Source: Marsupella aquatica
Lineage: Eukaryota > Plantae > Marchantiophyta
Assembly (NCBI GenBank): GCA_973895155.1
Contig: OZ316897.1
Location: 22,729,455-22,793,454, forward strand
DNA: 64,000 nt
Direction: 5' to 3'
Part shown: one piece after another, positions 36,291 to 62,190 of the stretch
How positions within the stretch are numbered: position 1 is the first letter of the stretch
Layout: the number at the start of each line of letters is the position of its first letter
The notes under the pieces: model-generated
What the model was told of the DNA's origin: nothing
The model's input: the letters and a program-made list of their open reading frames with translations, nothing else
The model's database searches: none
Position numbers and translations under genes: made by a program

Positions 36291-36336
36291 GTGACAGGAG
36301 ACAAAAAGGAAAGGTTTGAGACCCCCTTCTGATGCT

Positions 36337-37785: not shown

Positions 37786-38876
37786 ATCTGATGTTTGTCC
37801 ACTTAATACCTCTTTAGCTTGTTCAACTCGACATTTTCTCTCGCCTCTCTTTTGTTTTTCCCTCATATGGTACTTTGTTTCAAATAGGACTTTTTTGTAA
37901 ATAAAGTTCCCATCTTGCTTCCCGTGTGTTCATTATTTAGAGCCATTCAATCACTTGAATTGATGCTCCAATGAACTGCGTCATTCTACTTAACATTTGA
38001 GTTTGCACAAACTCAGATGAAAGACTATGTATTTGATGTTTGTTATTTAAGTGTGAATTTGAGCTTTTTAATTATGAATTGTACGAATAAAGCATCAAAT
38101 ACATTCAATACGTCAAGAGTTAGAATTATAGCATAATTCAAAGGAAAGTCATGTTTGTGTGAACTAGAATCCGGGATGGACTGATAGGTTGTCTATGAAG
38201 CCCCCATGGACAAACCAAACTTGGATGAACTTGACTCAAACACACATGCATGCTTGGATACTATGTTTTAAACTTGTGTACAAAAATACCCTGTCAGATC
38301 ATCACTTCTGTCCAACTATCCAAAAGTACCATGTCAAAGCACCATGTCTGTCCATTTTTGTCCAAGGGTACCATGTACCATCATTTTTTGCAAGCCTCAT
38401 TGTATCTCGTAATATTCTATTCTCTCAAGCTAGTCACTTTAACCATTTTTTTAGAGATCAATAAAAAATATGAAATATGTAAGGTATGTTTAGATATTTG
38501 TAGGCCTTATCTGGCCTTTATGGTAAATCACAAGGACGATATGCATGGTCGAGGAGTTGGGGATTTCCCCACCTAACTTGGTGAATCAGTGTACCATAAC
38601 AAAGAAGTGGGGATTCCGGACATCTTAGGTAATTTGGTTGAAAATACCCATGCTTTCCCATACATAACGAGGGATTTGATACTTCTAGCAGTTCAACGTT
38701 TCCCTGGGGTAATTTGCCTATGTGTCCCACAGGCGTGACATTTGGGGCGTTTCCCGTAATATACCCAACTATAGAAGGGTTTAGCGCCTCCGCATTTCCC
38801 CACATTTGCGTGTTTATTTGTATAAGCCGGAGGCAGTTGGCATAATCCAGGTCCTTGGATGGTCGCGCTCTCCGCA

Positions 38877-39865
38877 ACATCCGTGTGCATATTACTCGCA
38901 TACCGTGGGGTATCGCTGGGGTATTTGGGATGTCAGCGTCCAATTGCCGCTCTCCAAGTGGCTTCGCTGAGGTGTGCAGGATGATATTCATCTCCACCAT
39001 CCAATTTTGTTGTGGTAAAGTGGGGATTCCGTGTGCATATTACCCGCATACCGTGGGGTATCGCTGGGGTATTTGGGATGTCAGCGTCCAATTGCCGCTC
39101 TCCAAGTGGCTTCGCTGAGGTGTGCAGGATGATATTTATCTCCACCATCCAATTTTGCTGTGGTAAAGTGGGGATTCCGTGTGCATATTACCCGCATACT
39201 GTGGGGTATCTCTGGGGTATTTGGGTTGTCAGCATCCAATTGCCGCTCTCCAAGTGGCTTCGCTGGCAGCCCTGGAGGTGCGCAGGATGATATGCATCTC
39301 CACCGTCCAATTTTGCTATGGCTAAGTGGGGATTCCGTGTGCATATTACCCGCATACATTAGTGTATCTCTGGGGTATTTGGGTTTTCAGCGTCCAATGG
39401 CCGCTCTCCAGGTGGCCTCGCTGGCAGCCCTGGAGGTGTGCAGGATGATATGCATCTCCACCATCCAAATTTCCTGTTGTAAAGTGGGGGTTCTGTGTGC
39501 ATATTACCCGCATACCCTGGGGTAGATCGTTGGGGTATTTGGTATGCCACTTCCAATTGCCACTCTCCAGGTGGCTTCGCTAACAGCCCTGGAGGTTTGC
39601 AGGATGATATGCATCTTCACCGTCCAGATTTCCTATGTCGAAGCGGGGATTACTTGTGCATTTTACCTGCATACTGTGGGGTATTTGTAGGGTATTTTTG
39701 ATTCCATGCTTCTTGCTGCGTCAAATTGCATCCGCATCGTCAAATTCCAGGATAATGTGCATCCGCATCGTCCAAATTGCCTACGGTGAAGTGGGGATTC
39801 ACGATGTAACGCCTATGTATTGTGGGGTATTGGGGGATCCTCACGTATTACCAATGGGGTATTAA
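38877..39865. repeat. 148-159-bp satellite, ~6.5 copies, GGGGTAT-rich
   Basis: tgtgcat anchors at ~38881, 39029, 39177, 39335, 39494 and 39652. The first two units are nearly identical and later ones diverge progressively. Confidence 0.95.
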
Positions 39866-40098
39866 AAATGTCTGGCGTCCCCAGATGAATTGCATCGAAA
39901 ACCATCCAGTCATATTGCCAATGAATACCATGAAATGTCGATGGGTATCGTGAATGTAAGGTTCTTTATTGGGCCCAGCTTACGCAAATCAAATTTCTAA
40001 TATGGTTTTGAATCATTTCCTCATAGCGTTGTAAATAAGATCACAGTGAGTTAAGTAGCATTCATTTGTACATTAGAAACTAAGTACGTTAGCAACTC

Positions 40099-40101
<3 letters not shown>

Positions 40102-40172
<71 letters not shown>
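40102..40172. repeat. Compound (TC)n(AT)n microsatellite
   Basis: Read directly from the sequence. Confidence 0.97.
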
Positions 40173-40175
<3 letters not shown>

Positions 40176-40291
40176 AAACACGAAGCAAGTAGTGGTGGCC
40201 CTTGGTCAATATATAATGCAATCATATTCATAACCTGTCTAGCTTGTGCCGTTCATAGAGCGATGCAGGTATGCTATCTATGTAGTGAGTA

Positions 40292-43200
40292 CTATACCTC
40301 TTCCCCAGCTTTCTTCATAGCATTTTCAGGGAAGATCCTTTGTTGGCCATCGGCATTTAAAGCCGGAAGATGTGTAGCGATCACTACATTCTGCTCTACA
40401 ATCCACCTGGCCACCATGTCCAATAACTCTGATGCATTCTTCTGAGCGTGTTTGGTGAATGGCTTGGGGGTAGTCTTTGACCGCTTGTTCGTATCTGCTA
40501 CAAACGTGCGCAATTTGGCCTCCACTTCGCAGGTCTTCATCAAACCCATGGCTCTCATGCACAATACTAGTTTGGCGTCTTTGGTGAGCTTTTCAAAATT
40601 CTGCAAAAGTTACAGTCTTTGGTGAGCTTTTTAAAATATGGTAGTACACCAATGACAAGCTATAAATGATTATTTACAGAATCGTGCAAAACTTCTCAGT
40701 ATATGCTTACTATATTGGAGTCTCCAGAAGCCTGGGACTTGTTACTTCTTGTCGACCGGGTTCCTTGAGCACACAAAACTTCTTCCTGGTTTGCCTGTAC
40801 ATATATAATGACCACATAATGAGACCACAAGAGTACATTCCACACATACAATTTCTGTCTACACATTGTACACAATGATCGCTGCAACCTAATAAAGACT
40901 GCTGGCTTACAATGGATGGAAATAAGAAATCATACCATGTTTTTGCCGGTCAACAACCGTTCCCTTGCATCCTCCTGTACCTTTGTTGAAATAGCTCTAA
41001 ATGAAGGTACGTTTTCTTTGCTTGGGTTCGGACCCTTGCCTCTTCGTGCTCTACTCAATGGTTGATTTAGGTCCCGAATGCTTGCAAGGACTCCACCTTG
41101 TTCCTTCTCGATCTTAACCTACCATGCATATGTGGATGTGCAAATCATTGTATATATTGGTGAACCTAGGCTCAAAGTAGAATGAATTGCAAAGTCATAT
41201 ACATCACTTACAATAGAACTTTTAGGCCATTATAATAATTGCAATATACAAAACTTATACATACAATGATATATGATATATACCTTGGACAGTAGCGGGT
41301 TGTTTCCCCCTGTAGGATTGCTCTCAATCTTTTGTCTTTTTACCTGAAAAATAAGTATAAAGCAAACTCGGTGTCTTAATTTTAATTACGTACGTATGAT
41401 ATATAAGAATGCAACTAGCATGACAAAATACTCGTACCTCCGGTTCCGGTTGATCGTTAGGACTTATATTAGTGTCTTCATCATCCTCGTCAGATTCAAT
41501 GTAAAGTTGGGTGGATGTAGTGAAGCAATCAACTTGCAAGTTGATAGTTGATGTTGACGATGTTTTCTCCTGGCTACATGTAGTGGTATCCAGTACTTCA
41601 GTATCCTCGCTTGGCTCTCCATCGCTGGACCTGACCGCATCATCTGCTTTGCTTTCCTCTCTATGCTCTACTTCCACCCCTCCCTCTGCATCTTCTTCAT
41701 GGCCAGCTAATGCCAACACTCGCTTCTTTGGTTTTGAAAGAGGGTTTTCCTCAACGTCAGGCATCTCCGGTAACCCCGCTCCATTGGAGGCCTTTCTTGA
41801 GACAGCAGAACCCTCAGGAGAGGGACCTATCTCTGGTAACCCCGCTCCATTGGAGGCCTTTCCTGAGACAGCAGAACCCTCAGGAGAGGGACCTATCTCC
41901 GGTAACCCGCTCTCTTGGAGGTCTTTCCTGAGACAGCAGAACCCTGAGGAGAGGGACCTGAATACGATTGGCATACTTTATGAGCCAGATTGGGACTCAT
42001 GGAACAATATGCTCTCGGAACAAAAATGGACATGTCCTGCAATATGTACATGCACATCAATAGTGACGGTGCACGAGTGCCAAGGAATCTTGCAATATAA
42101 ATATATTGTAGAAAACCACATTCATTCAACATCTCTACCTCTCGATACATATCGACTGGGCAACATGAAAAAACCTGCAGAACCCAGAGAAGCAGATTCA
42201 TTCCGATGCAATGAACCTAGGGTTGGTAAATGCATATATATATTTATATATGTATATGGCACCATACTTACTGGTTTTAAGTGCCCAAACTGTACCATCT
42301 GCGGACCCTTTGAAGGTGTCATTAATGGCACCCAGTAAGGCGCCAACAATGACGGATTACCATCAGACAAGGCCTTCATGAACTTAATCTTCCACCATCT
42401 CACTTTCTTAATAACATGGACGCTCTCTGGTATTCCACGACCAACAACCTCTCCACTATACTGCCCCCTATACCTTACAGACTTATCGGCGTCTCTCATT
42501 TGCAGTTCTACCAAGGTCACCTTTAATGCATACGCACGAAGTTCCACAAAAATCTATGGGTATGATTGTCCATGTCCAATGGCAATCGCTTCATCTGCAT
42601 CTGGTTCTACCTTCATATCTGCAAAATCAGTCAGCTCCTTTTTTCGGGCCGTAGGGATGGCACCTGCAATGAAATTCAGTGCAAGTACTTGAGGTTAATT
42701 CCAGGGTATTTCCAGGTTATTTCCAAGTTGCGAAAGATAGAACACAGTTCATTGCCAAAATCAATGGCACTGCGCTAACTAATGAATGGGAATCTGTCAG
42801 TACGTACCTTCCTTGATTTTTGCATTTGCTTTCCTCCATTCATGCTTTCTGGCCAAGGCATCTCATGTTTAGATCTGGTTTCTGGACACTCAAATTTGAG
42901 AGGTGAAAGTTCGTGCATTCTACTCTGAACATACAATCGACAATTCTCTTTTGTCTTTGTGTCAGACTTGAAATCTGCACTGAGGTATTCGTATATCTCC
43001 TTGTCGGTGGCGAAATTCGCAAACCAATTCCTCACCGTTATGTAATTTGCCTTGTGAGCTTGGTGCGCTTCTACATGCTTAGAAGCCAGAATGGACCGTC
43101 CTCCAAATTTGTTGGTCACATTGAAGATGTCCTCTGCCAAAGGATAGAACTGTGCATAGCAGCGTCGAAACACACATCAGCGTGTATTCAATCAAACAAA

Positions 43201-43774
43201 GAAACTACCATTGTGCACTGCATTAGATGCCTTCGCGTGATTATCAGAAGTGGTCCTTGCCGTGGTCGCAATGGATTTCAATAGGCTAATTTAATGTCAC
43301 GGGAGACAAACAACTTACTTGATGATGCTTGGTAGAACCAATCATAGACGTCTCTCTCTCCGGCGCATCAGGAGTGCGGGTATTTTCAGCAGGCCTGATA
43401 GACTTGTGCTCTTCTTCACCAGAGCTCTCCTTTCAATTCGTATCACGTTTAGATAGTGTCTTCATTGGCGGCAACGGTGATGGCTACAGCGGTGATGGCT
43501 ACAGCGGTGATGGCTGTAGCTGTGATGGCTGTGTGACTCAAGTATTGTTGCTCCCGTTGCATTCATTCACCCATCTCCTCAACTTCTTCCTGTGCACCCA
43601 TGTCTTCATCCCCACACTGTCAAAGAAAAGTTGCCAATCATCCCCATCCATACAGAAGAAGCTTTCCCCAGTAAGATCCAACTCCTCAATTTTGGGAGTG
43701 TACATTGTCGATTCTAAACATCGATCAATGTTTTCACACAATTCCTTACACGTAAGCCTGCTCCATTCATGCAT
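40292..43774 (-). pseudogene. Multi-exon transposon accessory gene(s): N-terminal SAM-like domain, QPSPL repeat, TnpA/Tnp1(En/Spm)-like segment, 23-aa repeat and acidic region
   Basis: WS..C..LC...Y..KIEELDLTGESFFCMD.DDW..F..SVGMKTWVHRKKLRRWV fits the SAM pattern. GEVVGRGIPESVH..KVRWWKIKF..ALSD....LLAPY resembles Tnp1/DUF8039. 69-bp repeat x3 at 41760-41960. GT donors at 43318 and ~42806. Several in-frame stops. The exact exon structure is uncertain. Confidence 0.5.
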
Positions 43775-46170
43775 TGCAACTCTGTTTCAATCAACATCAA
43801 TCAAATGTAGGAAACTCTAAAGATCGACTTCACTCCAGGCGTACGCGTAGCAGAAATAGTGAAATACAGAGGGGGACTTAAAACAAAAAGGGAGTATTAC
43901 ACCAAGCGCACTCACTGCCTCTCTCGTTCATCGTTTGTTTGAATCGCCCACCCGCACGTGTTGAAGGTAAAGGCTACGGGTTCATTGTCCGTTTGAATCA
44001 CCCGCCCACGCGTGTTCAAGGTAAAGGCTGCAAGGAAAGTAGTGCATGTGTTGCCCGTCTCAAAGCTGGTCCTCGTTAGTTTTGAACTGACCGCCCTGGT
44101 CCAAATTAATAATGTCACTCTTCAAAATGCGATATATCCACAGTCCATTGCGTCAACCGCATCGCTGATTTTGTTTCTATCCAGCCGATTTAGGCCGGGG
44201 ATTTAGGAGTTGCGGTCATGATTATACAGCTGGGAAATTTTCCCTCACTCTACTATTCTAGGCCTAACTCAAAAGTCCACGCAGTTTGGATTACTATGAC
44301 AAGCTAGGACAAGATACAAACTATTCCCATGGAGACTAGCGCAGCCTGCGCTTCGGGAAAGTAAAGCCGCCAGCTACGATGACCTTTTGATCAATCAGAA
44401 GCCTATGTGGCAAATACCCTACATAGGATACCAAGAAGATAAGGCTGGCCTCAGTTTCCCTCCAGTTTCAGAGGGATTGTTTCCGCGGGAACGATTCCAA
44501 AGGTACTAAAGAGTGGAGGTCATTGACCGTAGCTCACACCTCCCACTCTAAGTGTTCGATCCTCCTCTGTGCGAGCTCAGACAACTTCAGAATAAGTTTT
44601 ACAAGTTCGCGCCCGATAACATCATCCAAAACGTGGAAGTCCACAGGCCACCTGCGGATCTTCGTACTACGTGGGAGAATTCTCTGTCAAATCCCATGCC
44701 ACCTTGTGCGATATCCTGTAATGTGTTTTGGATTTGGTAGAAATTATTGGCAGCACTCGGAGTCAATTCTTTTGATTGCAATAGTTTTTGCTTATGATTT
44801 GAGTTTGAAATGTGCTCACAGGTCAAATACAGGGTTCTCGTATACTTCAAAGCGAAAGCAAATCTTACCTAACCCTTTACCACCCACTTCTTCCTTAGCC
44901 CGGGCTTACTAGGCTACGCAGGTCATATGAAACAGGTAGAGCATTAATATCAGAGGAAGTGAAGAAGCGAATGTGACGTATTTTGTTCTGCCGGTGCGAG
45001 GTATGTGCGAGGTATGTGAGGGGTATGTTTGGGGTATTTGTGGTTATGCTCATTCCAACACTTATGTTACAAGGTTAGTATGAGAATGAACTCGGATATT
45101 TAGAACAGACCACACTTTTTGAGTCTTTGAGATTACAATTGAAGCAATATACATCATGAGCGCCATGCTGACAAAGGTGTTGTGGCATCGTCCGAGGCCG
45201 ATGCTTGTTTTGTGGCAACCGCCCGGGTTGCCTTGACAGGTAACCGGGTTGCCAGTATGCTGTCCACCCCCCCTTGCCAACCGGTATGCAATGGTAAGTT
45301 GTCGCAAAAGAGAATTTTACAACCTATTTTACGCATATGGAATTTTTCGTCTATTTTTTCATGATTACTTACTTCTTCATTGAGTTGCAGGCGTTGCCCC
45401 GGCCTTCAAAGTGCGAACTCCATTATTCATTTACATACATTACCCATCAATTCTCCATAAATATAATGAACACCTACTGGAACAAGAACACATCTGCCAT
45501 AAATGTATTGTTTGGGGTCACGTTGTTTTTACGGTTGTCTGTATGCTTGTGTTTTTTTTCCCTTCCTGGTTGTTGGGATCGATGGAGCCGCGGATCCGCC
45601 CAATGAGTTTCAGGTGTTTCTCTGTTTTTTGGTCTGTTGATGTCCAGACATTGGGGAGGGGCCCTTACCCAATTCTCCGTGAACTATGATGACCCAATAC
45701 ATGATGTCGCTGCGATCCGCAAAAGCGCTATAGTGGCTGAGTTCTATTTGCTGTCCTATATCAGAGTTTGAAGTTGGAAGTTTTCCTTGAGAAATTGCGC
45801 ACAAATTGCAAAATGAAAAATTGCCGAGATCCATTCATCAATTAAACACTAGCCGAGACCCATTCATCGATTAAACACCAGCCGATTAACACCCAATTAC
45901 TTTCTGGTATGTTTTAACAAACGCATCGTGGACATCACAACCTTCATTTAACAGATGCAGGTCCGAGCCCCCCTTTATTGCACATTGAAAATAAGTCGAC
46001 CATTCACATACATACATTCTGGTCCCACTTGCCCCACAAACCAAGCATACACGTTATGCCATATCAAACCAAAATGGCAGGTCATTGCATGGCCTGTAGG
46101 AACCTTACAAACTAAAAGACTCCTGCCCAAAATGCCAAACCATCGTACGTTGTGCTTGCATCTGGTCACA

Positions 46171-46875
46171 TCAGATATGAGTTGCATCCAAACTATCAAG
46201 CAGGTCCTGCAATCTACATCTAACAGAACTAAGTTGCGACGCCGTGGCCGGGTCTGAAGCATTAATAGATGATCTTGAAGATTCTGCTATATGCCTCCCT
46301 CGTGCAGTATGATAACTCGAAGGTACATTGTCCGTCTTCAACTTCGTCTTCCGTGGAGTGACAGAATTAGGCACCACAGAATGCAAGATCTCACAGTCGT
46401 CATCGCTTACAGGTGACAAGGAATTAATAATGGCCTCACCGTCTTTGCAGCGGATCACTACGTCCACACATTCCATCTTTGCTGTAGCTCTATGGACAGT
46501 AGCAAACTGGACAAAGTCTTCCTTCTCGCTAAAATCCTGCGGAGGCATCCCTATGAGATCAGTTGCTGCATCAAAAATCTTAGCTCGCACTGGAGGTACG
46601 TGTGGCCCGATAGTAGAGTCAACCAGGAACACCTCAAAACGATACCTTTCTGTCCAGGGCCTAGCAGCAACCGAATTATGGGGACATCGACTTGACCCTT
46701 CAACAGTGCGATTACACATCCACCCAGGTGTCACGAAGCGAGTGCATCCATGGTATAGAAACTTCCGCGGAAAATCGATTGGAGCATCAAAATTGACCAC
46801 AAAAACCCTCATTGATGGGAAGGTCCTCGTTTCTCCAGCATTGCAGCAGCCAACGACATCTTTAAGTGTGGCCAT
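46171..46875 (-). CDS. RPA70 C-terminal (DBD-C)-like Zn-binding OB-fold protein, intronless and intact
   Basis: LYHGC-x9-CNRTV-x5-CPH...RYRFEVFLVDST...IFDAATDLIGM matches the Rep_fac-A_C pattern YxAC..CxKKV...C..RY.l.v.v.D.TG...F...Ae.llG. Confidence 0.7.
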   Translation of the reverse strand: MATLKDVVGCCNAGETRTFPSMRVFVVNFDAPIDFPRKFLYHGCTRFVTPGWMCNRTVEGSSRCPHNSVAARPWTERYRFEVFLVDSTIGPHVPPVRAKIFDAATDLIGMPPQDFSEKEDFVQFATVHRATAKMECVDVVIRCKDGEAIINSLSPVSDDDCEILHSVVPNSVTPRKTKLKTDNVPSSYHTARGRHIAESSRSSINASDPATASQLSSVRCRLQDLLDSLDATHI

Positions 46876-47859
46876 GTCTCTGAAAAGAGCCACCCAGCAG
46901 AAATCCAAACAATAGTGGCGAAGGGCAGGCACTCAGCCGGGCGCAAGCACTACTCAGGAAGGGACGAATACCGATCTGCAATGGTTGCGAATCAAATGAC
47001 AAGCCGGACTGCAGAACACTCGACAAATTGTGTAGAGTTGTCACTAGATAAGTACATTATCGTGGGGTGCAAAGTGAATGCAAGTAGAGGATCCAGAAGG
47101 GAGACCCGGAGTTTAGGGCCGAGTTTTGGGAGACGTTGATTTTACGGGGATGTTGACTTTACGGAAGCGGAGCTTTGGGAGACGTTCATTTTAGAGAGAC
47201 GCGGAGTTTTTCTCTTGGGAGACATGGCGGACACTTCGTGTACTTGGGCACGTTTTAATGGAGTAAATATGCGGCAAAATAAATCAAATAAAAAAGACTT
47301 TGTCTCCTTCCGTTCTAAATTTCTCACCCTTCCCCTAACATAAATCTGAGTTTTCATTTTCTGAAGGCATTGGCTGAACTTGTGGGAGCTTTCCTTACAT
47401 ACATTGAATCTTATAGAGGTTGCTATATGGCTGAACTTGTGATGAGGGGCCTAAAACAGGGCCCATAATAATGTCTACAATACTTCGTCAGTGCCATGTG
47501 CCACATGTTTCAAATGTTGGATCTAGGCCCTTATATTGCCAGTTATATGGACCATTGGCACACTTTATGTCACATCATGATGACTTACAAGGGGAGAGTT
47601 TTTAACACATTTTCCTGCTTTTAAGGTGAAGTTATAAGGGTTTTTGAAGAGGAGGGACACAAAAGCATTGGGTGAGGCAGGGGTCATTTTGCTTTTTAAA
47701 ACTCTATTTTCTTTTCTTAGGGGGGGGGGGGGGGGTCATCACGCACTTAGTATATATTATTACATAAATATGAGAAACATAAAAATAAGATTGGAAATGA
47801 TTATCATTTCCTTGCCAAGTCCTGTGAAACGCGACCAAACATACAGCTAGGCAGGCGTA

Positions 47860-48136
47860 TTAATTAATTTAAGGATGAAACATGGAGGTAGCTCAGGGTG
47901 GGTGGGGGTGGGGGTCACTTCCACCCATTAAATGTTCACATCATGTGCAAATGATTGAAGTAAGGGGCCTTTTATTCATTACCCTAACCCTAAACCCTAA
48001 ACCCTAAGACTTGCGCACATATATGCATGCATGCATATGTGGAAGGTTAATTAATTTAAGGATGAAGTATGGAGGTAGCTCAGGGTGGGTGGGGGTGCGG
48101 GTCACTTCCACAAATTAAATGTTCACATCATGTGCA
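47860..48136. repeat. Two ~90-bp direct repeats flanking a short telomere-type tract (47982-48007)
   Basis: ttaattaatttaaggatgaa..atggaggtagctcagggtgggtggggg...catcatgtgca occurs twice, with ccctaa-ccctaaa-ccctaaa-ccctaa between the copies. Confidence 0.85.
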
Positions 48137-50005
48137 CCAAAGTATGGGGCGTTTCAGTCATTATTAATTTGTAAGGAAGTGCTTAGAAGTAGGGATGAAG
48201 TAAGGGGGTAACAATTCAAAAAGTCCCACTTTTCATCACACAATTCATTGGTTGCCACATGTCAATAAATGATTGGTGGGTTTTGTGACATTCCTATTCC
48301 TTTTTGAGAGAGTGATTAAATCAAACATGCATGTTCGCAGATGCATGTATAACAAGTTCCGTGATCCTAAGGTGAACTTGGGAGGTAGCTAGGTAGGTAC
48401 CAATTGTCTCAGTCCCTTAACAATAGAACTTATAAAGCGCCAACTACAAGGTAGATCGAGTGAAACCTCTTAATTAAACTGGAACTCCATGGCTGATCAT
48501 GTGGATGAGAAAACTCATGACCAGTATGTCAAATAATAAGCATGTATGCCATTTGTCATGACTTATACGTACTATCCTCTATTCATGTTTGTGCAAAGAA
48601 CAGGTAGTGAAGGCTAGCTAGTATGATATGTCAATGGAAGGGTAATTTAAGGATTAATAATCCGTAATCTAAGGATTTTGAAGGTTGACCATCATTAACA
48701 AGTGTGACACTATATAAGAAGTGATCGAGAGTAAATACATGCCATTCTATATTCAAGTAAGTTAGATTACTTTTGGTGACAAGCAGATAGACTCTGAATT
48801 GATGTGTGTAACTTAACATTTTACAAATGAAGCTCAATTACATTTCAAACTTTATTAAAGTTTGACGAATTGAAAAGCGGATTATGTACGTAATTATAAA
48901 ATCAAAATCAAAGTAGAATCCCTCGGCCCTCCCTCTTTTGCTACATTAAGTGAACCCCCCTGAGAACAAACCCCCCCATGTATATCGTTTGATGCATTAA
49001 AAATGCCTTGTTATGCATGTAAAAACATTACTTATCCTATCACATTAGATCCTTTTGTAAATTAGTACTAGAAAATTATTGTTCTTCCTGTGTTAATTTG
49101 TCTAAAACTCTGGTAGCTTATAGACTTCATGAAGGTAAACAAACTAGTACTAAAATGAATTAACAAAGGGAATATTAGGCTACACTATATCCCTAGAGGA
49201 ATATTCCATAGTCTACATTACTTATTTAAACTTCAATATATTGCGCCATTACTCTATCTTCATTTAAGAAGGGGGTATCAACCAATGACCTATTTTCAAA
49301 TGGTACATTGGGGGTCCTTAACCCCAAAACAAATTGACATGAGCACGTAAGATTGAGGCAGCAGGGTATTTCAGGGTCACACAATAATTAGTATGTGTGA
49401 CACTAATCTTGTGACATTTGAGATGGCTGATGTCGTGGCCAGCCCCTATAACCAGCTGGTATGCATTTGGTGAACTGGAATGCCATTAAAAAGCTTGGAT
49501 GACAATTCTATTTACATAGACCATATTGTAAGAAAGGATGGGTCATATACAAAATAAATAAAGACCTAGACAGGGCCCAACAGCAATTTCAATGTCCCAA
49601 CAATAATAAAAAACATGCACTTTGAACCAAATATGTCAATAAACTCCTAGAGTAAGCTGCCCAAGAAAGAAACCATACACATGAACTTCAAATTTGAATA
49701 GCATAAGCATGAATTCAACATGGTGAGTGACTGCCTTAGAGGGATTAGAGGCAGTGGCCCTGGGCTTGCAGGGTCAACGATAAGGTTTCCCACCTAGCAC
49801 ATTCGCTCACATGCAACAAGGACGTTTGAATGCTTTCCCGGAGTCATGAATGTCGTGGGCCCCACCTAATTATGCACAGTATTCAACATAATAATGAACT
49901 TCTCCAATCGTCCTTCCGACAATCCCACCGCGCACATCCACCTCCTGATGAATTCTGAATCAACTTCGTTGCAATATTTTGTACACAGGAACGGCAGTGT
50001 GCACC

Positions 50006-53000
50006 ATGACGCCAGAACCGAAGGAACAATGCACCTGTCAGTACAAATGTTTGCGCTTACGGGATGGGTATGATTTTGTGAGCCCAAGGAATCAAAGACG
50101 ACATGCAAACTATGACAAGACAGGCAGGGTCATTCCTGCAAAGTTTTTAGTGGACCATGGGCATCCGGATGGCCATGGCCTATCGCATCAAGACGGTCAT
50201 TCTGCCAGCTTCTTAGGTGTTCAAATGTCCCGACAAGAACATAGATATACGGCCCCAACTTTGTTGTACAGGGCACTTACAGGAGGAGACGGGAATGATG
50301 ACGTTGGAAGAAACGATTTGTAGGACCTGGATGTTGATGGGATTGGTCAGACGCTTCCCATGCAGTATGGTATCCACATAATGCCTCAAAGAATACTGAC
50401 CGTGGACGAAGCAATTTATCGACAGACTTGTAGATTACAATCAATGCTTGACGAGGCTAAAATGCCTCAGGCATTGCAGGTAGCATTTTGAAAATGCTAT
50501 TCGGGAAGATTCAGATTCCCCCATCTACAAATTTGACACCTTCACCCGACCCTCCATCCGACATGGCAAATGTAGGACTGGGTGCACTCCTGAGGCACGC
50601 TCAGTGTGACGTGGGACGGAGGACGCCATGGAATTGATGCATTGTCATCATTCAAGGGTTTGTGTGGCACGTTTGAGGCATATGGTATGCCAAAAATGCA
50701 GCGGTGGAGAATGTGTATTGGACAGAAGCCAAACTGGCATGCTCTCGTAGTCCTAAAGCTGTCGCACCAAGATGACTACAATGTCCGAACTGGATTGAAG
50801 TGTAGTTGTTCAATCGCAGGGACGAAGTGGCATCTAGCCAGGGATTGTTTGCGTTGTTCGGAACGTTGCCCATTTGATGGTTGCAGCACGGCTCGCAAGG
50901 AGATGCTCTGGTTTGAATATTTCCCCATTGGTCCCATGTTGCGGAAGTTATGTAGCAGTCGATCTGTTTGTCATGAGTTCCAGGCAATGTGGAGGGACAA
51001 AGATAAGTGGTTTAAGAAGGATTCCATGCCAAGACCTGTGTACAAGGAATGGTGGGATGGCTACCATGCTTCCGAGCTATCCTACTTTTGGGACACTGGC
51101 ACACAGTTTGAGATTCCCGTGTTATGCCGAAACTGTTATGCTTGCTATTCAACAACACCAAATAAATGTCCTGAGTTGTTGGATACTGCCAACTGGGATA
51201 ATGTCAGCAAACAATACAACTTCCAATGCTCAGATTGCGGATCTCGAGTCACGGCCCCGAAACAATTTGCAAAGGTTAGTGATTTCTTCTTGCGTTACTG
51301 TTGTTGCGCACTTTTGTATGACCAGGGTATGGTATGGGTATTTTTAGGGTATTTATGGGTTATGATAGAGTAACTTTTGTCTAACTAGTGTGACCCACCG
51401 CATGCAGAGTGATCCCCAAAATATTGCACTCATGGCACACTGGGATGGATTTCAGTCTGCCAAGACTGCCCACAAAAGCACTTGGACTGTAGAGGTCCAA
51501 GTTTTAAGCGCTGGGTCTCAAACCAAAATTCCACCTATCCCTGTTCTTTTTATCCCGCCATGTGATGACGACGACGTAGGAAAAAAAAAGCTGAAATGCT
51601 TGGATGCTTTCTTAGAACCATTCATAAGAGAACTGGAGGAGTTGTTTGTGGATGGGATAGAGGTGGATTACAATTACCCTGTGGAATTATTGGCTGAAGA
51701 GGATAATGTACCGAATGACTCCAGGTGTGTGCTACAAGCACTGTTAGCAGTTTTCACTGGAGATCATCCCGCACAATGTAAATTTGGGGGCTGGAATGTT
51801 ATAGGTTATTCCGCTTGTAGGAATTGTAAAATGAGCACTCGATGGATGAAGTGCAAGTTTGATCATCCTCAAAAGGAGACTGACCAATCACAACCCCGAG
51901 GTTTTCTGGGAAGGGCTGTGTATGACAACAATAGGATGCAGATGAGATATCCACCACCTACACGGAAAATTGAAGAGGTGAGGGAGGCGGCCAGGAACAT
52001 GACCAGGGCAGGAACAACTACAGAGAGGATGAAGATAAGCAGGGAGTGCAGGATTTCAAACATGACCAGGGCTTGGCGACTACATGAGCTTACTGGATTT
52101 TGTTTGAGCAAGGATCTGGTGTATGATACAATGCATATCCTTGCCTTGTGCCTTTTCAAGAAATACTGCGAGCTTCTAGTTTTGAGTGTTCCCCGTCAAC
52201 ATCAAAAACAGTTTGAAGATGCTCTGGAGGAGGTTACTGCTAGGAAACCGAGAGGTTTTGATGGAAGGTGGCCTAAACAACCTTTTGAAAGATTGGGATA
52301 CTTCAAGGCTGAAGAGTTCACGCGATTCATATTGTATTGTCTGCCTCATATCCTCCAACAGATGGACATTAGTGTCCACTCTGACCTTGGGACGCTTGGG
52401 ATTCTTTTGGTAGAGATTGCACGCCTCTTTTATATCAGAAGTAGACAAGAGGGTTGGACTACAGCCACATTGAAAAAAGGCAGGTCTCTACTGGCTTCTT
52501 GGAGAGTTCGCTCAGAAGAGGCTTGGGGCCCAAATGGAGCAATTCTAGAGCATGTTGCTGGTGAGTCATTTTGTTTACACTTGCTACATGACCATGATGA
52601 TAGTGGGTATTCATTGTTGGTCGATCCATCATTGCACTGAGGTGATGTTCTAATCCCAATGTGTTTTGATCCCAATTTTTAGGGAGCGGAGAGATATTTG
52701 ATGGGATAGAACGACATGGCCCACACTATGTTTATTGGTGCTACCACTTCGAGAGGATGGTATCAGACTATGGACGCACCAGAATAAATCAGAAGGACCA
52801 GGAAGTCACTTATTCTCAGATTCATTTTGCACGACGCTTTTTCACAAAAATATCGTCGTACATTTGGGAAGATGACGATGGACTTTTCCCTCATCAGAGG
52901 GCTTTGGAGAAAGTTCATGCATCCCTGCGTGTCCCTGCGGAGCATCGTAAGGAGCACAGGTGCAGAGTCACTGTACCACCATCTGAATGCCCACACTGGC

Positions 53001-54052
53001 ACGGGAATTCAGTGCCAATAGTTTCAAGTCAAATTCTAGCGATGGAATTGTGGGATAGTATGATATCCTCTGTGGAGTCATATGGTTGCAAGCACATGTT
53101 GTTGAGCAAAGGGGTTGGCATAGGCTCAAACAGGAAGCTGACAAAGAAACTGGGGTTGTCCGCCAGGATGTCATTGAAGCAGCATTGGACAGATGTTGGA
53201 GTATTCAACATCAGTGAGGACCACGAAATTAGTGAATCTTGCACTCCATTGCGATCAGCTGTGTGGAGAGCTGAAGTGTACATGCCTGGCGATCACGTTG
53301 TTGTACTGGTAGATGGGAGTACAGATGCTTCACATCCTCAAAACTGGAAAGCAGTACTCCAAAAGATTTTCATGCACGATTTCGATGGCCACATGGACAT
53401 ATTCTTTGAGGTGGATTGGTATAAACAACAGTATACACAGGATCCTTGGCAAAATTTATTGTCTTGGGAACGAGATGAGTATTCCCTGTTTACTCTTTTG
53501 GAACCAAAAGTATATCACGCACATGGCAACAACTGTAGGCCTATGTCAAGAATTCTACACAAGTTCTTCCCAATTCAAAGAGGCGGGAGGGAGGTTGTAG
53601 CCTTGGAGATTGGAGATACTTTAGTACGGGAACTCCCTACCACAATTGCAAACTGCCCTCCTTTCCCAAAGGTAGGGGACATAATGATTGCAATAGCGGA
53701 CTCACTTTCCGTCCCTGACCTGTGTGTTGTAAGGGAAGTCCTCCTTCCCAGGTGCGATGCAGCAACGGAAATGCAAGCGGGGGATGTAGGAGTGGACGGT
53801 GCTTCTGACGAGGAGGAGGAGGGAGGGGATGACATGGCATAATTGCACAATGCAAATGATACTGAGAAGGACCTCGGGAAGGTTGGTGTGAGCTGGTTGT
53901 CTGTACAGGGTTCTCGGTCAAGTTGCCCAATCTACAAGGCAGTGTCACAAATTGATGAACACATCACCTTTCAAAGATTAGTTGCGTTGAGGCTTGATTT
54001 TCGTGCAATTGGACTTCACCATGGTATCCCTGTACGGTGGAATACCGTATAG
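50006..54052 (+). pseudogene. CACTA/EnSpm Tnp2-like (Transposase_21-type) DDE transposase, disrupted; introns 51275-51407 and 52561-52682
   Basis: N-terminal CxCxxxC. Motifs NIALMAHWDGFQ..S.W, LDAFLEPFIRELEELF.DG, GDHPAQCK..G....Y.AC..C, YDTMH, FKAEEF and HGP..V.WCYHFER. In-frame stops at 50321 and 53840 and frameshifts near 50480-50600. Confidence 0.85.
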
Positions 54053-54798
54053 TAATACCATGGAAAGTCCCAAGTACGACAAAAAGAAAGATACTATGGG
54101 ATATGACAACACTTGAGAGGCGCCGTTTTGTCAATAATTGAATACTGACCAGGATGCAGACCGTAGGATGTGCGAGATGCAGGTCAGACGTGAGCCTGTG
54201 ATGGTGACACTATAGTGCTTCGCACGGGGTATGATCGGGGACGGCACGGGTCACGAATATCATTGGATTCTGGGTCGGACGTGACATAATGGATGGGTAT
54301 TACCAGGTTACTTGGGAACGTGATAAAATGTATGTTGGGGGAGTGAAAGGGCGGTGCCACCGATCGGAGACAGAATCTATGTTGTGAGATCTACTACTGA
54401 AATTGCAGTGACTAAATGATGCATGCCACTGCGCACATGAATGCCCTATGAGGAATTCCTTATAAGCTTTGGGCAATGGTGCGAGCTCCTGAGCTCCAGT
54501 CTTTGATTGTGTAGGTTTCGTAAATCTTTGTGGCTGACAAGTCTGCCATTGGATAACACTTGGGGTGTTAGCGACGGAAGCAAGTATCGACGAGCGCGGG
54601 TGACGTTGGAGGATTGGTGAAAGTATGGTTCATCGACATGATCATCCAGCGCCGGTCGCATTGTTGATGCAGAGCGACGAGGATATCACAGATCGTATGT
54701 ACCCCTCTTTCACTCAACTCCTTTGGTTCTTAATTCCGCATGAAGTATATTGATCAATTGTTAGAATGGCGCAACTAAGGCCTGCTTTGTTTGTACAG

Positions 54799-57700
54799 TC
54801 GTGACGGAGACGATTTGGAAGTCATGCTCGGGGAGGGTAATACGGCATTATCTAGCGATGGCCCCTGCAGACCCTAAACCCTAAACCCTAAACCCTAAAC
54901 CCTAAAGCTAGAAAAGCTGGTTTGGTTCCATGTTTTGAACTCGACTGGCCCAGAGTTGCAATTCCTACTATAAAGGAGTTCGCAGTAGGGTATGATCAAG
55001 GTCAAAACTGTGTGTCATTCTGGGGTGCAACTCACACATTCAACAGAGAGGTATTGCGAGCTGCATTTGCTTTTCCATCTGGAGAATGGGCCCGATTTAA
55101 ACCTGGGTTGGGCCAAGGTCAACTAAATTCCATGTTTTCTGCCAAGACGAAAGGCAACCCATACAGTCTAGACAAAATCACTGCGCCATATATGCAATGG
55201 TGTGGGATAATCAGGGCAATTTCTGAATTGCTCTCAGGCAAGAGCAAACCCACTCAAGTCACCTCAAAAGACATGTGGGTATACTGGGCGTATTGGTGGG
55301 ATACGATTAGGGTACGTGATCATTTTAGAGGAGCTGAAACTCCCGTGGTGAAGCCCGATTGGGCACATTTGGTGTACGATAATCTGACGAGTGAGATCCT
55401 CAAGTTAAAGTCACACCTATCGAAGAATGGTGTCGTAGACAAACGACTTCCTTGCTACTGTGGCACTGCTATCACGCAGATTCTTGTACACTACGGGTAT
55501 TCGCTGGAGGAGCTTATGGTCGAACAACACGAAGATGATCATGAGGAGGACGACAAGGAGGAAGGGGACAATGGCTCACAAGAGGACGAGGAAGGGGAGG
55601 CTGGCTCACAAGAGGACAAGGACGGGGACAGTGGCTCACAGGAGGATGAGGAAAGGGATGACGGATCACGAGAGGACGAGGAAGGAGAAGATGGCTCACG
55701 AGAGGATGAGGAAGGGGATGGTGCGTCTGACGGTGAGGGGCAGCCATCGGAGGTTGCGCCCCAATTCTCCAGGGATGAACATAAATGTCCTCAGGGTGAG
55801 CACAAATCGCCGCCCTCTGTGCCAGAGTGCATGCGTGTTCTATCACAGCACATACGTGCGCTAGAGGTTGATCTTGCAGAAAAATTGGACATGCTACGAG
55901 AAGCAGTGGAGAATCATAAAAAATTGGTCCTCGATTTGATGAAAGAAAACGACAGATAGAGAGTCCGCATATTAGAATTGGAATGGCAGGTTGGGTTGCA
56001 TTCAGAACAAGTTGGCAGTGAGACATCGAGTGGAGAAGGTGAGAGCGGAGGTGACAAGAGATGTTGTGAGGTTCTGGTAGGTCTTGGTGCCAGGGTACAT
56101 GCAGGTTATGATGCAGAGGCATCACAGCGTAGCCCAATTTCAGAGTTACCGCCAGTTTCTGGTGTTCCAGCTATAGTAGAGGTACCAGCAGCAGCACCAG
56201 CAGAAGCAGGTACTTTCCCAATTTATTATTCTGGTGTTCCAGCTATAGTAGAAGTACCAGTAGCAGCACCAGCAGAAGCAGGTACTTTCCCAATTCATTA
56301 TCCTACTTCAAAGATACAACGAGAGGAGTCTATGTCGAGTGGAGGTGACTCACCAGTTTTGGTAGAGTTACAGGCAGCCGCACCACCAGTACTGGCAGAG
56401 GTACCGGCATCAGAAGAAGTGATGTCACTTTTAGAAGGAGAGGCACCAAATGCTGCACCAACATCAAAAGTAGAGGTCTCAGCTACAGAGGAGGACAAAT
56501 CGTCGGGTACAATTGCATCAGAAGTACCAGGGTCACCTCCGATTTCTGTTCTATTTCATGTTCCAACTAAGAGTCCGGGATGGGAGGCTAGGATGAGTCA
56601 CATTTCACGACAACCAAATTTTCCTCGTGCTTCAAAGAGAGGGCGAGAGGACTCTATTCCGAGTGGCAGTCACTCACCAGCGAAGAGGAGGGCTATTGAA
56701 GTGGAGGAAGAGGAAAAGGTAGAGGAAGAAGAAGAAGAAGATGAAGTGGAGGATGACGAGCATTCAGAACAAGACATTCACTGGGAAGAGTGTGCCACAG
56801 AGAGTGGAAAGGTTAGCGATTTTTTTTCCTTTGTTGTGTGATTACTGTTTTTTCAGAAACAATGTTCAAGCATATCTAACTTGGCTGTGAGCGGGATCCG
56901 CAGATTGATATCCAAGGGTCTCACTTGACAGAGGAGGCATGCCCTCCACCTGGTACAATGACTACAGCTCTATATCCACACCAACGGATTGGTCTTGCAT
57001 GGATGTTGGAATGCGAATCCGGAAAAAGCTCTCCAATTGGTGGGATGTTGGCGGAGGACCAGGTACAAAAGCCCCCAAATTAAGCCGAAGTCGCACTCAT
57101 TATTTTCATTCAGCGGGATACTTTGGGGGTATTTTTGGATTATGTTAGGGGTACGCGCGCACCTTGTCTGCAAGTGATTGTTTCCCTGACCATTTTCTTG
57201 GCTTGGATTTTTTTAGGGAATGGGGAAAACCATGCATGTCATAGCGCTATTTCTCGCGAATCGCCCTCATAAGTGTGGGCCAACTTTTGTCCAGCCAGCG
57301 TGGTGATTCAATGGGCCAAGAAATAGCTGCAAGGACCTCCAAGATAGCAAAAGTGAAGGTCCTCCTCTACCACAACAAGAGGAATAAAGACATCAACTTT
57401 ATTTCAAGCCATGACGTGGTTGTCACTACGTACTCAATCATGACAGGGGAGTCTCCCATTGCTCCAAAGACGTCCAGTGTGCCAAAAGGGAGTATGAAGA
57501 GACCTGTAAAAAAACCTAGACTTTCAGGTCCACTGTTAAAGATTAATTGGCTTAGAGTAGTCCTGGATGAGTGTCATGTCATGAAAAATAAAACTAGTCA
57601 AAATTTCAAGGCCTCGCGTTGTCTCAAGGTAGAGAGGAGGTGGTGCCTAAGCGGTACACCCATACAGAACGAGGCTTCTGATCTGTTTCCTTACTTCAGT

Positions 57701-59577
57701 TTTTTGAGGTATTATCCTCTAGGAGAGTGGAAGGAATTCTCACAGTTAAAGAAGCTGCTGAAGACAAGGCCAAAGATAGCGAATGGCATCCTCTCGAAAC
57801 ACTTGGTTGCGATTGCGCTCAGGAGAGACAAAAGTAAGCATGCATGCATATATCATGGTAGAGTTCACTTTGTTTAATCCCAAGCCTGATTTCTTTATCA
57901 ATTGTGCGTTTACCCTGCCACTGTGCTTACATGCAGGCATACTCCCACTGCCCCCTAAGATGATCGAGGTGCAAATTGTTGAATGGAGAACACAGCAAGA
58001 ACGAAACGCTTATTTTGATCAGGAGGAAAAGAGTAAGGAGTTATACAAGGTACATAAGGCTCTTAAGAATCCCCAATGTTGAAGACGTATGAGAGTTCAA
58101 TTTGATCCCTTGAAGGTGTCTGTTCGGTGGTAATTAATGTGCCTGTAATGTTGTAGGAATTCCGTGATGCTGAAAGAGGTGCCTTATCAAATGTGTTGAG
58201 CGTTCTGCTCCGGTTGCGACAATTTGCAGTGCACCCGAAACTTCCTTCCTTATGTAAAATTCGCGAAGAGGAGATCGAGAACAAAGTGCAAAGAACGCCC
58301 CTTAGTGAGCCTCAACGAGCCCGACTCGTGTCAGAGTTTCAGCAATTAAAGATTGGAAGTGCTTGCGTGGACTACAAGGTGAGTACAGTCACTCTGGGTA
58401 TGGGGTATGATTGGGGTATTTCAGTTAACGTGCTTTGCCTAACAATTTTTGCACACACTCACTTTAACGGTTGGATTGTGCAGGGGGGCTTGATTGGAAG
58501 TCCATTTCAGATTTCTGGCTGTGGCCATGTATACTGTGGCATTTGTGCAATAAACCGGGAAGCTGGAACCTGCAAATCGGCAAAATGTTCAAAATACGTG
58601 ACAGCCCAGGTCCTATACAGGCCAGCTGATTTGAGGCTAGTGAATGGTGGTGCGGAGTCAAAAGGGAAGGTGCGAAGAGAATATGATGTCCGACACCCAC
58701 CTTCTCCAAAATTTGATGCAGTCTTGGAATACCTAAAGTCGATTCCGCTGGACACTACAGGACAGGGCAGCAGCGAAAGCTTTGTGCCCAGGCAGAAGGC
58801 TCTTGTTTTCTCACAATGGACTTCGTGTCTCAACATGCTTGAGCCACACATTCTGAAGGCTGGTCTAAAGTTCACAAGGATTGATGGAGGAATGAATTCC
58901 AATGTCAGAGAACAAGCCTTGAATGATTTCAAGATGACCCCAGAGGTACAACCGTCATTATCCGTGCAGATCGATGTCTGTATTTGTTCAAAGGGTAAAC
59001 TCTTTATATTCTAATTAAATTGTTTCTACTCATTTCATGCAGATCAGCATTATCCTCTTGTCCTTGATGGCAACGAACACAGGACTCAACATCACTGAGG
59101 CTACACATGTTCTTATGGTAGACGGGTGGTGGAATCCCACGGTAGAGGACCAAGCCGTCGATCGGTCACATCGTATAGGGAAAATAAGGCCGGTGAAAGT
59201 CGTCAGGTTTATCGCCGAAGATTCGATTGAGTTGAAGATTTTGGAGCTGCAGGTAAGATTAGAAGTGCTTGTGTGGACTGCAATGTGAATAAAGTCACTC
59301 TGTGTATGGGGTATTATTGGGGTATTATTGGGGTATTTCGGTTCATGTGCTTTGCCTAACAATTCCTGCACGCACTCACTAGTAATGATGAATTACGAAT
59401 TCCATATATGTGGTCTCTAATTGTATGCATGTTGCATGTTTTGTGCAGAACAAAAAATGAGTGATGATCAGGGCCATCATGTATGGCTGTGCAACCGGGA
59501 AAAAAGATAACATGGAACAAAATCTGGAGTTCATACTGGGAGAGAATCGGCAACAGAGGTTCAATGCATCAGAGTAG
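54799..59577 (+). pseudogene. Fusion gene: plant transposon-protein-like N-terminal domain, acidic repeats and coiled coil spliced to a RAD5/RIS1(FRG)-type SNF2-RING helicase; disrupted
   Basis: Exons ~54799-56811, 56904-57062, 57217-57833, 57937-58049, 58157-58378, 58484-58945, 59043-59252 and 59449-59577, all with GT-AG borders. Motifs LYPHQRIGLAWM, GGMLAEDQ|GMGKT, W.RVVLDECH, RRWCLSGTPIQN, LLRLRQ, CGHVYC..C, KALVFSQWT, GLNITEA.HV and WWNP..EDQAVDR.HRIG. Stops at 55957 and 59458 and two frameshifts near 57285-57315. Confidence 0.85.
54872..54906. repeat. Perfect interstitial telomeric tract (CCCTAAA)5
   Basis: Five exact Arabidopsis-type telomere units. Confidence 0.97.
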
Positions 59578-61429
59578 CTAGATGAGTTTTAGCTAAGGTT
59601 CTCTTCGGTGCTTGAGTCAGTTAGGCAGTGACACTCTTACTGTTCGTTTACTTGTCAGTGCCACTCTCGTTTCCTCCCGTTGTGATTTTAGTGCAGCGGG
59701 ACAACGATGAGACTAGGAGGACAGAGCCTGAGTGGGTCTTTCCTTGCCACATATGTACCTGTTCGAGCCTCCTGTGGGAGCATTATGAATTGAACACTTC
59801 ATCTTTGAATCATGTCCATTGTTTCTCATGTCCAATGTTTCTTTGGTATTCTTTCTTGTGTTCTTTTGTGTGTGTTTAGGGTTTAGGTTATGCACTTGCA
59901 AGACACACCGAATGATTATCCTAGGGACATAGATAATTTACAAGCATAGCAGCCCGTCCACTACAAGGAGATTTGGTTCCCTACTAAATATGGGACAAAT
60001 ACCTTACCATGAATCGCTTTGATATGAGGGGAATGAATTCCCAACTCATCTTCTGGAAATTACCCCCAATAGTAAGGGGGCGGGGAGCATGAGGTACGTT
60101 GGGGTTAATTTCCCTACTTACCCCCTATATTCCCCTCTTTCAAACTCCTAACCTTGCAGATCTTCCTTGTGAATAAACTTATGTTTAGACTAAGCTCTTC
60201 ACAATTTACTCATAGCGCCTCAAGTAGTTTGTTCAATGAGCAAAAGCAAAATTAACTCAATTTTTTTCAAGAATATTTTTATGTTTATAGTAGATCGCAA
60301 AACTCCTACAAAAGGGGGAAACAAGCACCACAATGACCCATGAACCAACATAACAATTTCCACTAGGAAAACAGGGGACAAATCTTGATTTTCATAGAGA
60401 ATTGCTCTTGAGATGGAATACTATTTTCCATAGAGTGTTGGCCTTGTGTTAAGGAGCCGGGGTTTGACTTATTTTGTTGCAGCAAAGCTAACTCAGATTT
60501 TAAACTATGAGGGTATTGTTGAGAAATCCTATTTTTCAGAGAGCGTTGCTCTTGTTACAATAAGCGCTTTGAGTACTTTGCCGTCGTAGAGGTCTCAAAA
60601 ATTTCAAATTATAGAGTACTAGTTGTACACCTTTATTTCATTTCATGCATTTTTTCAGTTCACTTTTAGGTGCACATAGTCTCCTAACATAATTAAAATG
60701 TAGGTAAATAGCTAATGAGCACATTTATTACCTAGATTTTCTCATCATTATGTGTAAGATGCTCAGTTTATGTGTCACAGTCCATGGGGATGTTGGGAGA
60801 CAACCTCCTAGTCCATCCGGGCTTTGGTTTCTGTTTTTGTATGCTATTTTTTAATCACTTTGGGGAAAATCATGAAAATATTGAAAAGAGAATTCAGGCC
60901 TTGGACTCATGATTTATAAGGCTTCTTGTTATGGACCTCCATTAGGGGTACCTTGCAAAATTCCTGGTACAAGAGAGTGTCACATCAGCAAGTATGACAC
61001 GGGGTGTGACGACAAACCGAATACAACACGATTTTGGACCGACCGAGAAGTGTGTCGTTTAGCCCGATTCCATTTTTTTTCTAAGGCAATGCAATCTTTG
61101 ATAAAACGCCCGCAAAATTAAAAAAACATCAGTTGCCTACATTGCATCGCCACAAGAATGCAGGGAGCGATATGTGCATCGGGTTTTACATTTGGAACGT
61201 AATAAATTCCAAACTATGAGTAGCTTGCTCCCAACTAAGTAATCGAGGATCGACCACGCACTAACCTGAGTTAGTGCAAACTTAACCATGGTTAACAAGG
61301 GAAAATAACCATGGTTAGAGCATTCCCTATATATAAAGAGGAGCAGGCTGCCCATAAATGGTTTATTTTCTCTAGAGCTCCTATCAAGTCTTACATTCCT
61401 CCCATGAGATTTGATTCTTTCTCAAGAAA

Positions 61430-61830
61430 ACCCGATAAATTTATCGGAACTTCCATTCTAGGTTGAGTATCATCTATGTAAGGTTTACTCGTCATTTGGT
61501 ATTAATGTCCTAATCCGAGCGGACTACGATAAATTTATCGCATTCCACATTCCTCTACTGCATTGAATATGTTTGAACCTGAACATCTGATAAAATTATC
61601 AGAGTGCGCATGCATAGACTGGATTTAGGGTTTTCTTAGACTCCGATAAATTTATCGGAGTCTTCATTCCTATGCCGGATTGAGGATTGTTTGAGACTCC
61701 GATAAATTTATTGGAGGCTTCATTCCTGTAATGGATTGAAAATGATTTTCAAAGAACATCCGATAAAAATATCAGAGTGCATATTCCTGCACTGGATCCA
61801 CAAAAAATCTTCATTATATAAATTTATTGG
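61430..61830. repeat. Array of ~55-95-bp units built on the palindrome CCGATAAATTTATCGG
   Basis: Palindrome or variants at ~61432, 61528, 61588, 61643, 61699, 61760 and 61818. Confidence 0.8.
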
Positions 61831-61879
61831 AGTCTTCATTCTAATCCAAAGTTTGGTTTGTGAAAGGGTATAACTAACA

Positions 61880-62190
61880 TGCCAGGAAACAGTAAAAAGG
61901 AAACAACAAACAATAAACAGTAAACAGCAAATGGATTAAAAAATTTGAATTTTTTTTGAATTTTGTTTTGAATTTTTTTGTTTTGAATTTTTTTTGTTTG
62001 TTTGTGTTTTTGATATTTTTTACTAGCGCCCCAAGCTAGTAATAGTAGTGTCTGACGCTAGCCAAAAATGATCATTTTTAAAAATATTTTGAAAATTTTG
62101 AGTTTTAATGAGAAAATTTTTATATTTCATTTTTGCTCGTAACAGTAAAATTTTGCTCATAACAGGAAATCATTTTCCTGTTTCCTGGCA
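61880..62190. mobile_element. MITE-like element, ~310 bp, AT-rich, ~20-bp TIRs
   Basis: Left end tgccaggaaacagtaaaaag; reverse complement of right end tgccaggaaacaggaaaatg. No clear TSD. Confidence 0.6.

Follow-up and report, generated by a model that had tools for sequence, protein, structure and literature searches.

In the liverwort Marsupella aquatica, a stretch of 64,000 nucleotides (the window; contig OZ316897.1 of assembly GCA_973895155.1, positions 22,729,455 to 22,793,454 of the forward strand) raises the question of what unites a transposase gene with the genes around it, among them one for a chromatin remodeller of the SNF2-RING type. A sequence-only reading had described the locus as a giant CACTA-like transposon carrying a chromatin and single-stranded DNA toolkit. 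The answer we favour, which we put at slightly less than an even chance, is that the window holds one copy, now decayed, of a repetitive EnSpm-type transposon 22.7 kb long, in which a domain predicted to have the VANC/PMD fold would bring the SNF2-RING remodeller to the element's own GGGTAT arrays and undo silencing there.

In regard to its extent, the unit is 22,671 bp long (38161-60831), and the limits proposed earlier (38160..60830) agree to within one base with those given by the alignment of terminal inverted repeats (TIRs) and by the stops of contig matches. When the reverse complement of the 60 nt ending at 60831 was compared with the first 60 kb of the window, the best site was 38161, with a score of 44 (22-31 in 15 shuffles). 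The TIRs are degenerate, about 50 bp long and identical at 25 of the 36 outermost positions in an ungapped alignment. TGT at both borders represents a candidate target site duplication (TSD), seen at one locus only, where agreement over 3 bp could arise by chance. When the end regions were aligned locally without an anchor, the highest score (46, at 38485/60143) hardly exceeded that of shuffles (43), and the result was not used. Public contigs were compared over 56800-61940, with record coordinates read as window-oriented, judging from records that stop at exon ends. At the right border, the match of two contigs, from two studies, extends to 60832, beyond which they diverge, while a third terminates at 60831; the three are about 80-90% alike and were taken among the loose ends listed, besides which there are 894 more. 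Contig depth remains high past the right end because another repeat adjoins there. This different high-depth repeat (60835-62700) is built of 56- and 74-bp tandem units with palindromic motifs. No CACT-anchored (CACTA/CACTG) end pair with a duplication was found; the ends read GAACT and GAAAC, and the element is therefore not a canonical CACTA, contrary to the termini first assumed.

The Tnp2-like transposase recognised earlier was confirmed by a match to PF02992 (30.7 bits, cut-off 28.6) and by 26 homologues aligning along 50012-54040, of which 17 are from the liverwort Riccia sorocarpa (42-56%), eight from the fern Adiantum nelumboides (35-41%) and one is unnamed. The motifs WDGF, DHPAQCK, YDTMH and WCYHFER are present, the first being found in 24 and the second in 23 of the 26 homologues. 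The gene has introns at 51275-51407 and 52561-52682, and is damaged by in-frame stops at 50321 and 53840 and by frame breaks in the 5′ exon. None of the homologues matched any remaining part of the window, and no Plavaka family was listed for the open reading frames (ORFs) of the window or for the 18 of the 26 homologues scanned. A metagenome scan returned two contigs whose length, about 1.3 kb, is insufficient to show neighbouring genes, and no locus was found in viral and prokaryote collections. With a Tnp2-type DDE transposase, TIRs and a candidate 3-bp TSD at this single locus, the element belongs to the EnSpm/CMC type.

Between these ends lies a gene with profile matches to SNF2, Helicase_C and, weakly, RING. 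All motor motifs are kept: Walker A (GGMLAEDQ and GMGKT, split by an intron), DECH, SGTPIQN and motifs IV, V and VI. Where the top 120 of 221 database hits are named, they are mostly CHR27/CHR28 (FRG, RIS1-type) remodellers; across these 120, Walker A reads DQ in 85, DM in two and is unreadable by the pattern used in 33. The gene shares with CHR27/CHR28 the SNF2-RING-helicase order and the DQ Walker A and has them as its best database hits, but its identity to plant CHR27/28 is 31-36% over about 600 residues, it lies within a repeat, and the host N-terminus is likely replaced by a transposon-type domain. Its branch is also very long (4.21): in a tree of 34 of the 120 hits, which holds no bryophyte and no RAD5/RAD16 rows, it stands at an open fork beside Coccomyxa, outside the angiosperm clade, and is unplaced.

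Sequence words from 50600-59500 were found in seven public runs, about half of them in four; X5-X7 hold small shares, and the cover in X6 is no more than patchy. Contigs span the SNF2 gene at flat depth (227-265 in X2, 455-531 in X1; 10-20 and 29-34 in other listed records), the main ones being about 13-27 times deeper than the diverged ones in X2 and 14-19 times in X1. Such ratios suggest roughly 13-27 near-identical copies, depth itself being no copy number. The matched variant contigs number 1183, 588 and 1499, and together with the high flat depth and the two contigs that are unlike past 60832 they may reflect repetition with differing flanks; no empty site was seen. Over 56800-60200, X1 and X3 (organism A) and X2 (organism B) agree in the alternative letter at almost every position listed, as could be expected of close relatives or of a recently transferred family. 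Compared with the copy in the window, the deep contigs have eight extra letters across two frame breaks near 57.3 kb; in them a RING codon reads Cys (here Tyr), RIGQ keeps its Gln, and Arg is encoded in place of the stop in the last exon. Since these four lesions are missing from the deep contigs, they are private to this copy. The large cargo-bearing EnSpm-type element foreseen in the sequence-only reading is thus borne out, with the SNF2 gene lying between the ends and present, unlesioned at these places, in two studies.

The differences themselves also speak of decay. Of 309 differences 40 were listed, and after four past the element end were dropped, 25 of the remaining 36 have T for C or A for G, in CG (14), CHG (9) or CHH (2) context. 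Judged from these letters, the pattern is that of decay of a methylated copy. The mutational decay said to be shared by the whole unit is supported for the SNF2 part only (23 of 25 transitions in CG or CHG). Each in-frame stop could derive from a sense codon by a single C-to-T change, but since this applies to any stop codon it was rejected as evidence of decay.

Furthermore, the 5′ part of the same gene holds a domain (54913-55506) whose predicted fold resembles that of VANC (PDB 9LNK), a transposon-borne anti-silencing protein, followed by a coiled coil that spans a TAG at 55957. Neither Foldseek, against PDB and viral structures, nor a second-look alignment matched the N-terminal domain to anything; likewise, none of 23 alignment members matched DUF1985 at E up to 1, and PF10536 (PMD) did not match it. 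In the gene model, the 5′ exon joins the SNF2 exons in frame through a GT-AG intron (56812-56903), and the SNF2-RING helicase is likely fused to the VANC/PMD-fold domain. Of the fusion of a transposon domain to SNF2 claimed earlier, the SNF2, Helicase_C and, weakly, RING domains were detected; its reading frame runs across the TAG at 55957. Repeats of 7 bp of the plant telomere type occur at 54871-54906 (five copies) and 47981-48007 (about four). The former disrupts the reading frame where the VANC-like domain begins, a place at which homologues are continuous, and may be a break healed by telomerase.

A short motif ties the unit together, as had been claimed. GGGGTAT occurs 21 times in the element, always on the + strand and never inside the exon model, as against a single copy in the remaining 41 kb. 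Ten copies lie outside the tandem array, where 200 simulations gave a mean of 0.84 and a maximum of five; there, too, eight of the ten exact GGGTAT pairs at most 40 bp apart are spaced by 11 or 22 bp. Phased clusters lie at 38908, 39679, 42704, 44999, 51325, 58403 and 59309, with none on the − strand or outside the element, and collapse to five independent sites; 194 of the 200 simulations had no cluster. A scan blind to the motif also found lag-11 periodicity at four sites inside the element and at none outside. The clusters at 51325-51360, 58396-58420 and 59309-59337 lie in transposase intron 1 and in SNF2 introns, and since the SAM gene, on the − strand, holds a + strand cluster in its intron at 42704, motif orientation is tied to the element and not to the gene. 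The motif differs between relatives: one transposase relative (L001, 41%) has in the same intron a 14-bp phased TGTTAT array and no GGGTAT, while a more remote one (L002:118-977, 37%) has an intron and no lag-11 array. In the P0027 cluster, back-translation of the ORF read-through that flanks the domain exon on both sides yields an array of a third motif with an 11-nt period (52 of 55 matches, against no more than 36 in shuffles and 21-26 at other periods), the one case of its kind among 30 proteins scanned. Two SNF2 introns share a duplicated 126-bp segment (58349-58463 / 59255-59380), which is 80% alike and comprises exon-end sequence and a motif cluster, a possible route for the spread of motif arrays.

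According to the mechanism we propose, the transposase would act by cut-and-paste, as expected from its family, and the VANC-like domain and SNF2 would be made as one protein across the TAG and the intron. The targets of the domain would be the GGGTAT arrays, phased at 11 bp, in the non-coding DNA of the element, and the coiled coil could let it oligomerise on motifs one helical turn apart. Once bound, it would bring the RING and the captured motor of CHR27/28 type to the promoters and introns of the element and to its left end. Among the weakest steps, the remodeller would shift nucleosomes or displace a host CHR27/28-SUVR complex, keeping the four genes and the ends open, and, equally weakly, the OB protein might handle single-stranded DNA at excision, with the SAM protein as a scaffold. 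The counter-silencing suggested earlier thereby gains a specific basis in the predicted fold and the phased arrays. Since one gene combines a predicted reader with a candidate effector, and the sequence shows the likely target motif, the whole chain is testable.

Such an arrangement recalls the VANDAL elements of Arabidopsis, which are Mutator-like. The motif bound by VANC21 is 9 bases long and occurs in introns, spacers and terminal repeats, with different motifs in related families (PMC5735166); how marks are removed after binding was called an open question in the 2017 VANC paper. Sequence-specific anti-silencing is established for eudicot VANDAL elements and for Spm TnpA at termini. Also known are anti-silencing by VANC, fusions of VANC with Ulp1, and PMDs carried by Gypsy and Mutator-like elements (MULEs) (PMC5735166, PMC10398659, PMC13317346, PMC5418596, PMC12973397, PMC13547354, two bioRxiv papers). 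The liverwort element resembles VANDAL/VANC in the predicted fold of the accessory domain, in the coiled coil after it and in its family-specific short motifs, which form non-coding tandem arrays in introns, spacers and terminal repeats and differ among related families. However, it has an EnSpm-type (Tnp2) transposase in place of MuDR, TIRs and a 3-bp duplication, whereas VANDAL elements combine a Mutator-type transposase with non-TIR ends; its domain has no DUF1985 sequence match, and a captured SNF2-RING motor stands where KIU-type VANC carries Ulp1. It also belongs to a non-seed-plant lineage, while VANC is described as dicot-specific in the available part of PMC13547354. The element is thus a giant of EnSpm type, probably VANDAL/VANC-like in action and not a VANDAL/VANC member. 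PMD (MAIN/MAIL1) domains, reported in the texts seen as structural relatives of the VANC domain and as repeatedly transposon-borne, are described there in angiosperm Gypsy and MULE elements, not in EnSpm and not fused to SNF2, and PF10536 is unmatched here.

With angiosperm CACTA/Spm (TnpD and TnpA), the element has in common the Tnp2 domain, the DDE motifs, the 3-bp duplication and subterminal repeats, but it differs in its GAACT/GTTTC ends, in the degenerate TIR of about 50 bp, in lacking a detected TnpA, in the internal motif arrays and in its four genes, arranged as two divergent pairs. It shares its size class with the giant EnSpm/Plavaka elements of red algae, given in the accessible texts as 17-19 kb with three accessory genes in Bostrychia and 16-20 kb with 4-5 ORFs in Chondrus (bioRxiv 2025.02.11.637652, PMC6431247). 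These also have an EnSpm-type transposase, several chromatin-related accessory genes and a proposed self-binding of internal repeat arrays. Their cargo, as described there, is methylase-SET and ParB-2OG oxygenase, unlike the SNF2-RING, VANC-like, OB and SAM genes found here, and the transposase here scores with Tnp2. As giant multi-gene EnSpm elements are known from red algae, size and cargo alone are not new. Full-text searches returned no CACTA/EnSpm element with an SNF2 or VANC/PMD domain, though one could stand in reports of Repbase, in papers behind a subscription or in supplements on bioRxiv, which were outside their reach. More tentatively still, non-seed plants could host a giant EnSpm lineage in which anti-silencing evolved independently of VANDAL, through a VANC/PMD-fold reader fused to a hijacked remodeller of the RNA-directed DNA methylation pathway (CHR27/28). 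This would amount to a sequence-programmed ATP-driven remodeller and ubiquitin ligase, with each family co-evolving its own helically phased motif array. If so, VANC-like systems would extend to another transposon superfamily and probably to liverworts, with a silencing-pathway remodeller turned against its host and a natural programmable remodeller at hand.

Alternatively, the cargo could be a kit for transposition and repair, with the SNF2-RING protein acting like RAD5/HLTF together with the OB protein on the donor gap or at forks, and the SAM protein binding the motifs as a TnpA analogue and building the transpososome. We consider this unlikely. RAD5 is the best solved-structure match of the motor (E 1.4e-10), yet it may be merely the nearest solved relative, because no CHR27/28 chain was among the PDB hits, and CHR27/28, with the DQ Walker A, lead the database hits. 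Like TnpA sites, one motif array lies in a subterminal position, but most independent sites are internal introns, unlike the Spm TnpA effect, confined to termini in the available text of bioRxiv 10.64898/2026.08.24.746577, and the right end has no array. The OB-fold lead within the same element also favours such a kit.

This lead concerns an intact ORF (46875-46171), for which the ESM Atlas gave Rep_fac-A_C (0.90, rank 4) along with POT1, CTC1 and MEIOB clusters, at low recognition (1609). Pfam and PDB gave no match, no homologue was found among 227 candidates, and the single-sequence model was unusable (pLDDT 33). The RPA70C-like gene announced earlier thus exists as an ORF, with its name taken from the Atlas. 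In the same way, the exon at 43774 exists and owes its SAM name to an Atlas lead (0.88), while the likeness to TnpA found no support, the exons of the gene matching nothing in Pfam or PDB. By eye, both were compared with the SAM and RPA70C consensus patterns.

It is also conceivable, though improbable, that the mobile unit is the right half only, with transposase and VANC-like/SNF2 gene, and that another element, nested or adjacent, contributed the SAM and RPA-like genes. Both left genes have no sequence homologues and face the opposite direction beyond an AT-rich gap of 3 kb, and the left 18.6 kb lay outside the comparison with other copies. Against this, a matching inverted end and TGT stand to the left of both genes, and the same strand-specific phased motif is common to the SAM gene intron, the spacer and the left array. 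Moreover, a Rep/helicase gene, the hallmark of Helitrons, was absent from the 20 element ORFs scanned and from beside the OB gene.

Quite improbable, in turn, is neutral cargo, with SNF2, OB and SAM as captured host pieces or as single-copy host genes between chance ends. The distinction between depth and copy number would leave room for it, as would one X2 contig that carries most SNF2 positions and the lack of a depth drop at the adjoining repeat. The depth ratios and the numerous variant contigs argue otherwise, as do the motor motifs, all kept despite the low identity to plant CHR27/28, and the SNF2 introns, which bear the motif of the element. Finally, a fusion that retained the silencing role of the host protein, restraining the element itself or its rivals, is very improbable: host CHR27/28 promote silencing and MAIL1/MAIN are described as silencing factors in the texts consulted (PMC5418596 for the latter), but the transposon-borne structural match is an anti-silencing protein, and PMD-C proteins were later shown, in the part available, to counter Polycomb (bioRxiv 2024.09.27.615353).

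Table 1. Features of the element, in window coordinates.
Feature	Position	Strand	Basis
Candidate TSD, left copy TGT	38158..38160	.	Identical triplet at 60832-60834
Left TIR, degenerate, starts GAACT	38161..38212	+	Best alignment partner of right end
Subterminal tandem array, 148/158-bp units with GGGGTAT pairs spaced 11 bp	38880..39860	+	
Multi-exon accessory gene, N-terminal SAM-like domain, several in-frame stops, limits approximate	40295..43774	-	ESM Atlas lead
Intergenic 11-bp phased motif cluster	44982..45050	+	
Intact 234-aa single-exon ORF, likely RPA70C-type zinc-ribbon OB fold	46171..46875	-	ESM Atlas lead
EnSpm/Tnp2 DDE transposase, ~1,260 aa	50006..54052	+	PF02992, DDE motifs, homologues
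Accessory gene, 5′ part	54625..56811	+	VANC/PMD-like domain, acidic linker, coiled coil, low-complexity spacer
CHR27/CHR28-like SNF2-RING-helicase exons	56904..59577	+	Domain matches, motor motifs, database hits
Right subterminal region, degenerate repeats, copy-to-copy number variation	60170..60780	+	Contig joints skipping or going back 33-211 bases
Right TIR, ends GTTTC	60780..60831	-	Contig match limits and TIR alignment
Candidate TSD, right copy TGT	60832..60834	.	

Ordinary plant genes occupy the window to the left of the element (amidohydrolase, sugar transporter, lipid-transfer protein, P450). At 10496-13634, about 2.4 kb are flanked by long inverted repeats (193 bp, 83%) with subterminal repeats of 48-62 bp, likely a non-autonomous TIR element, and tandem arrays of 17 bp (25495-26050) and 40 bp (35900-36300) probably mark where other transposons end. 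In the P450 gene, a piece of the likely first exon recurs as a perfect 25-nt inverted copy 630 bp away (34961-34985 / 35617-35641). The arms pair in the predicted fold, the whole 801-nt region being unremarkable (z -1.1), and small-RNA or hairpin control is possible. The Amidohydro_2 gene (512-1348) has a hydrophobic N-terminal stretch and belongs to a family frequent in microbes, while the Sugar_tr transporter (15669-19216) has an N-terminus of fungal appearance, with horizontal transfer as a possibility.

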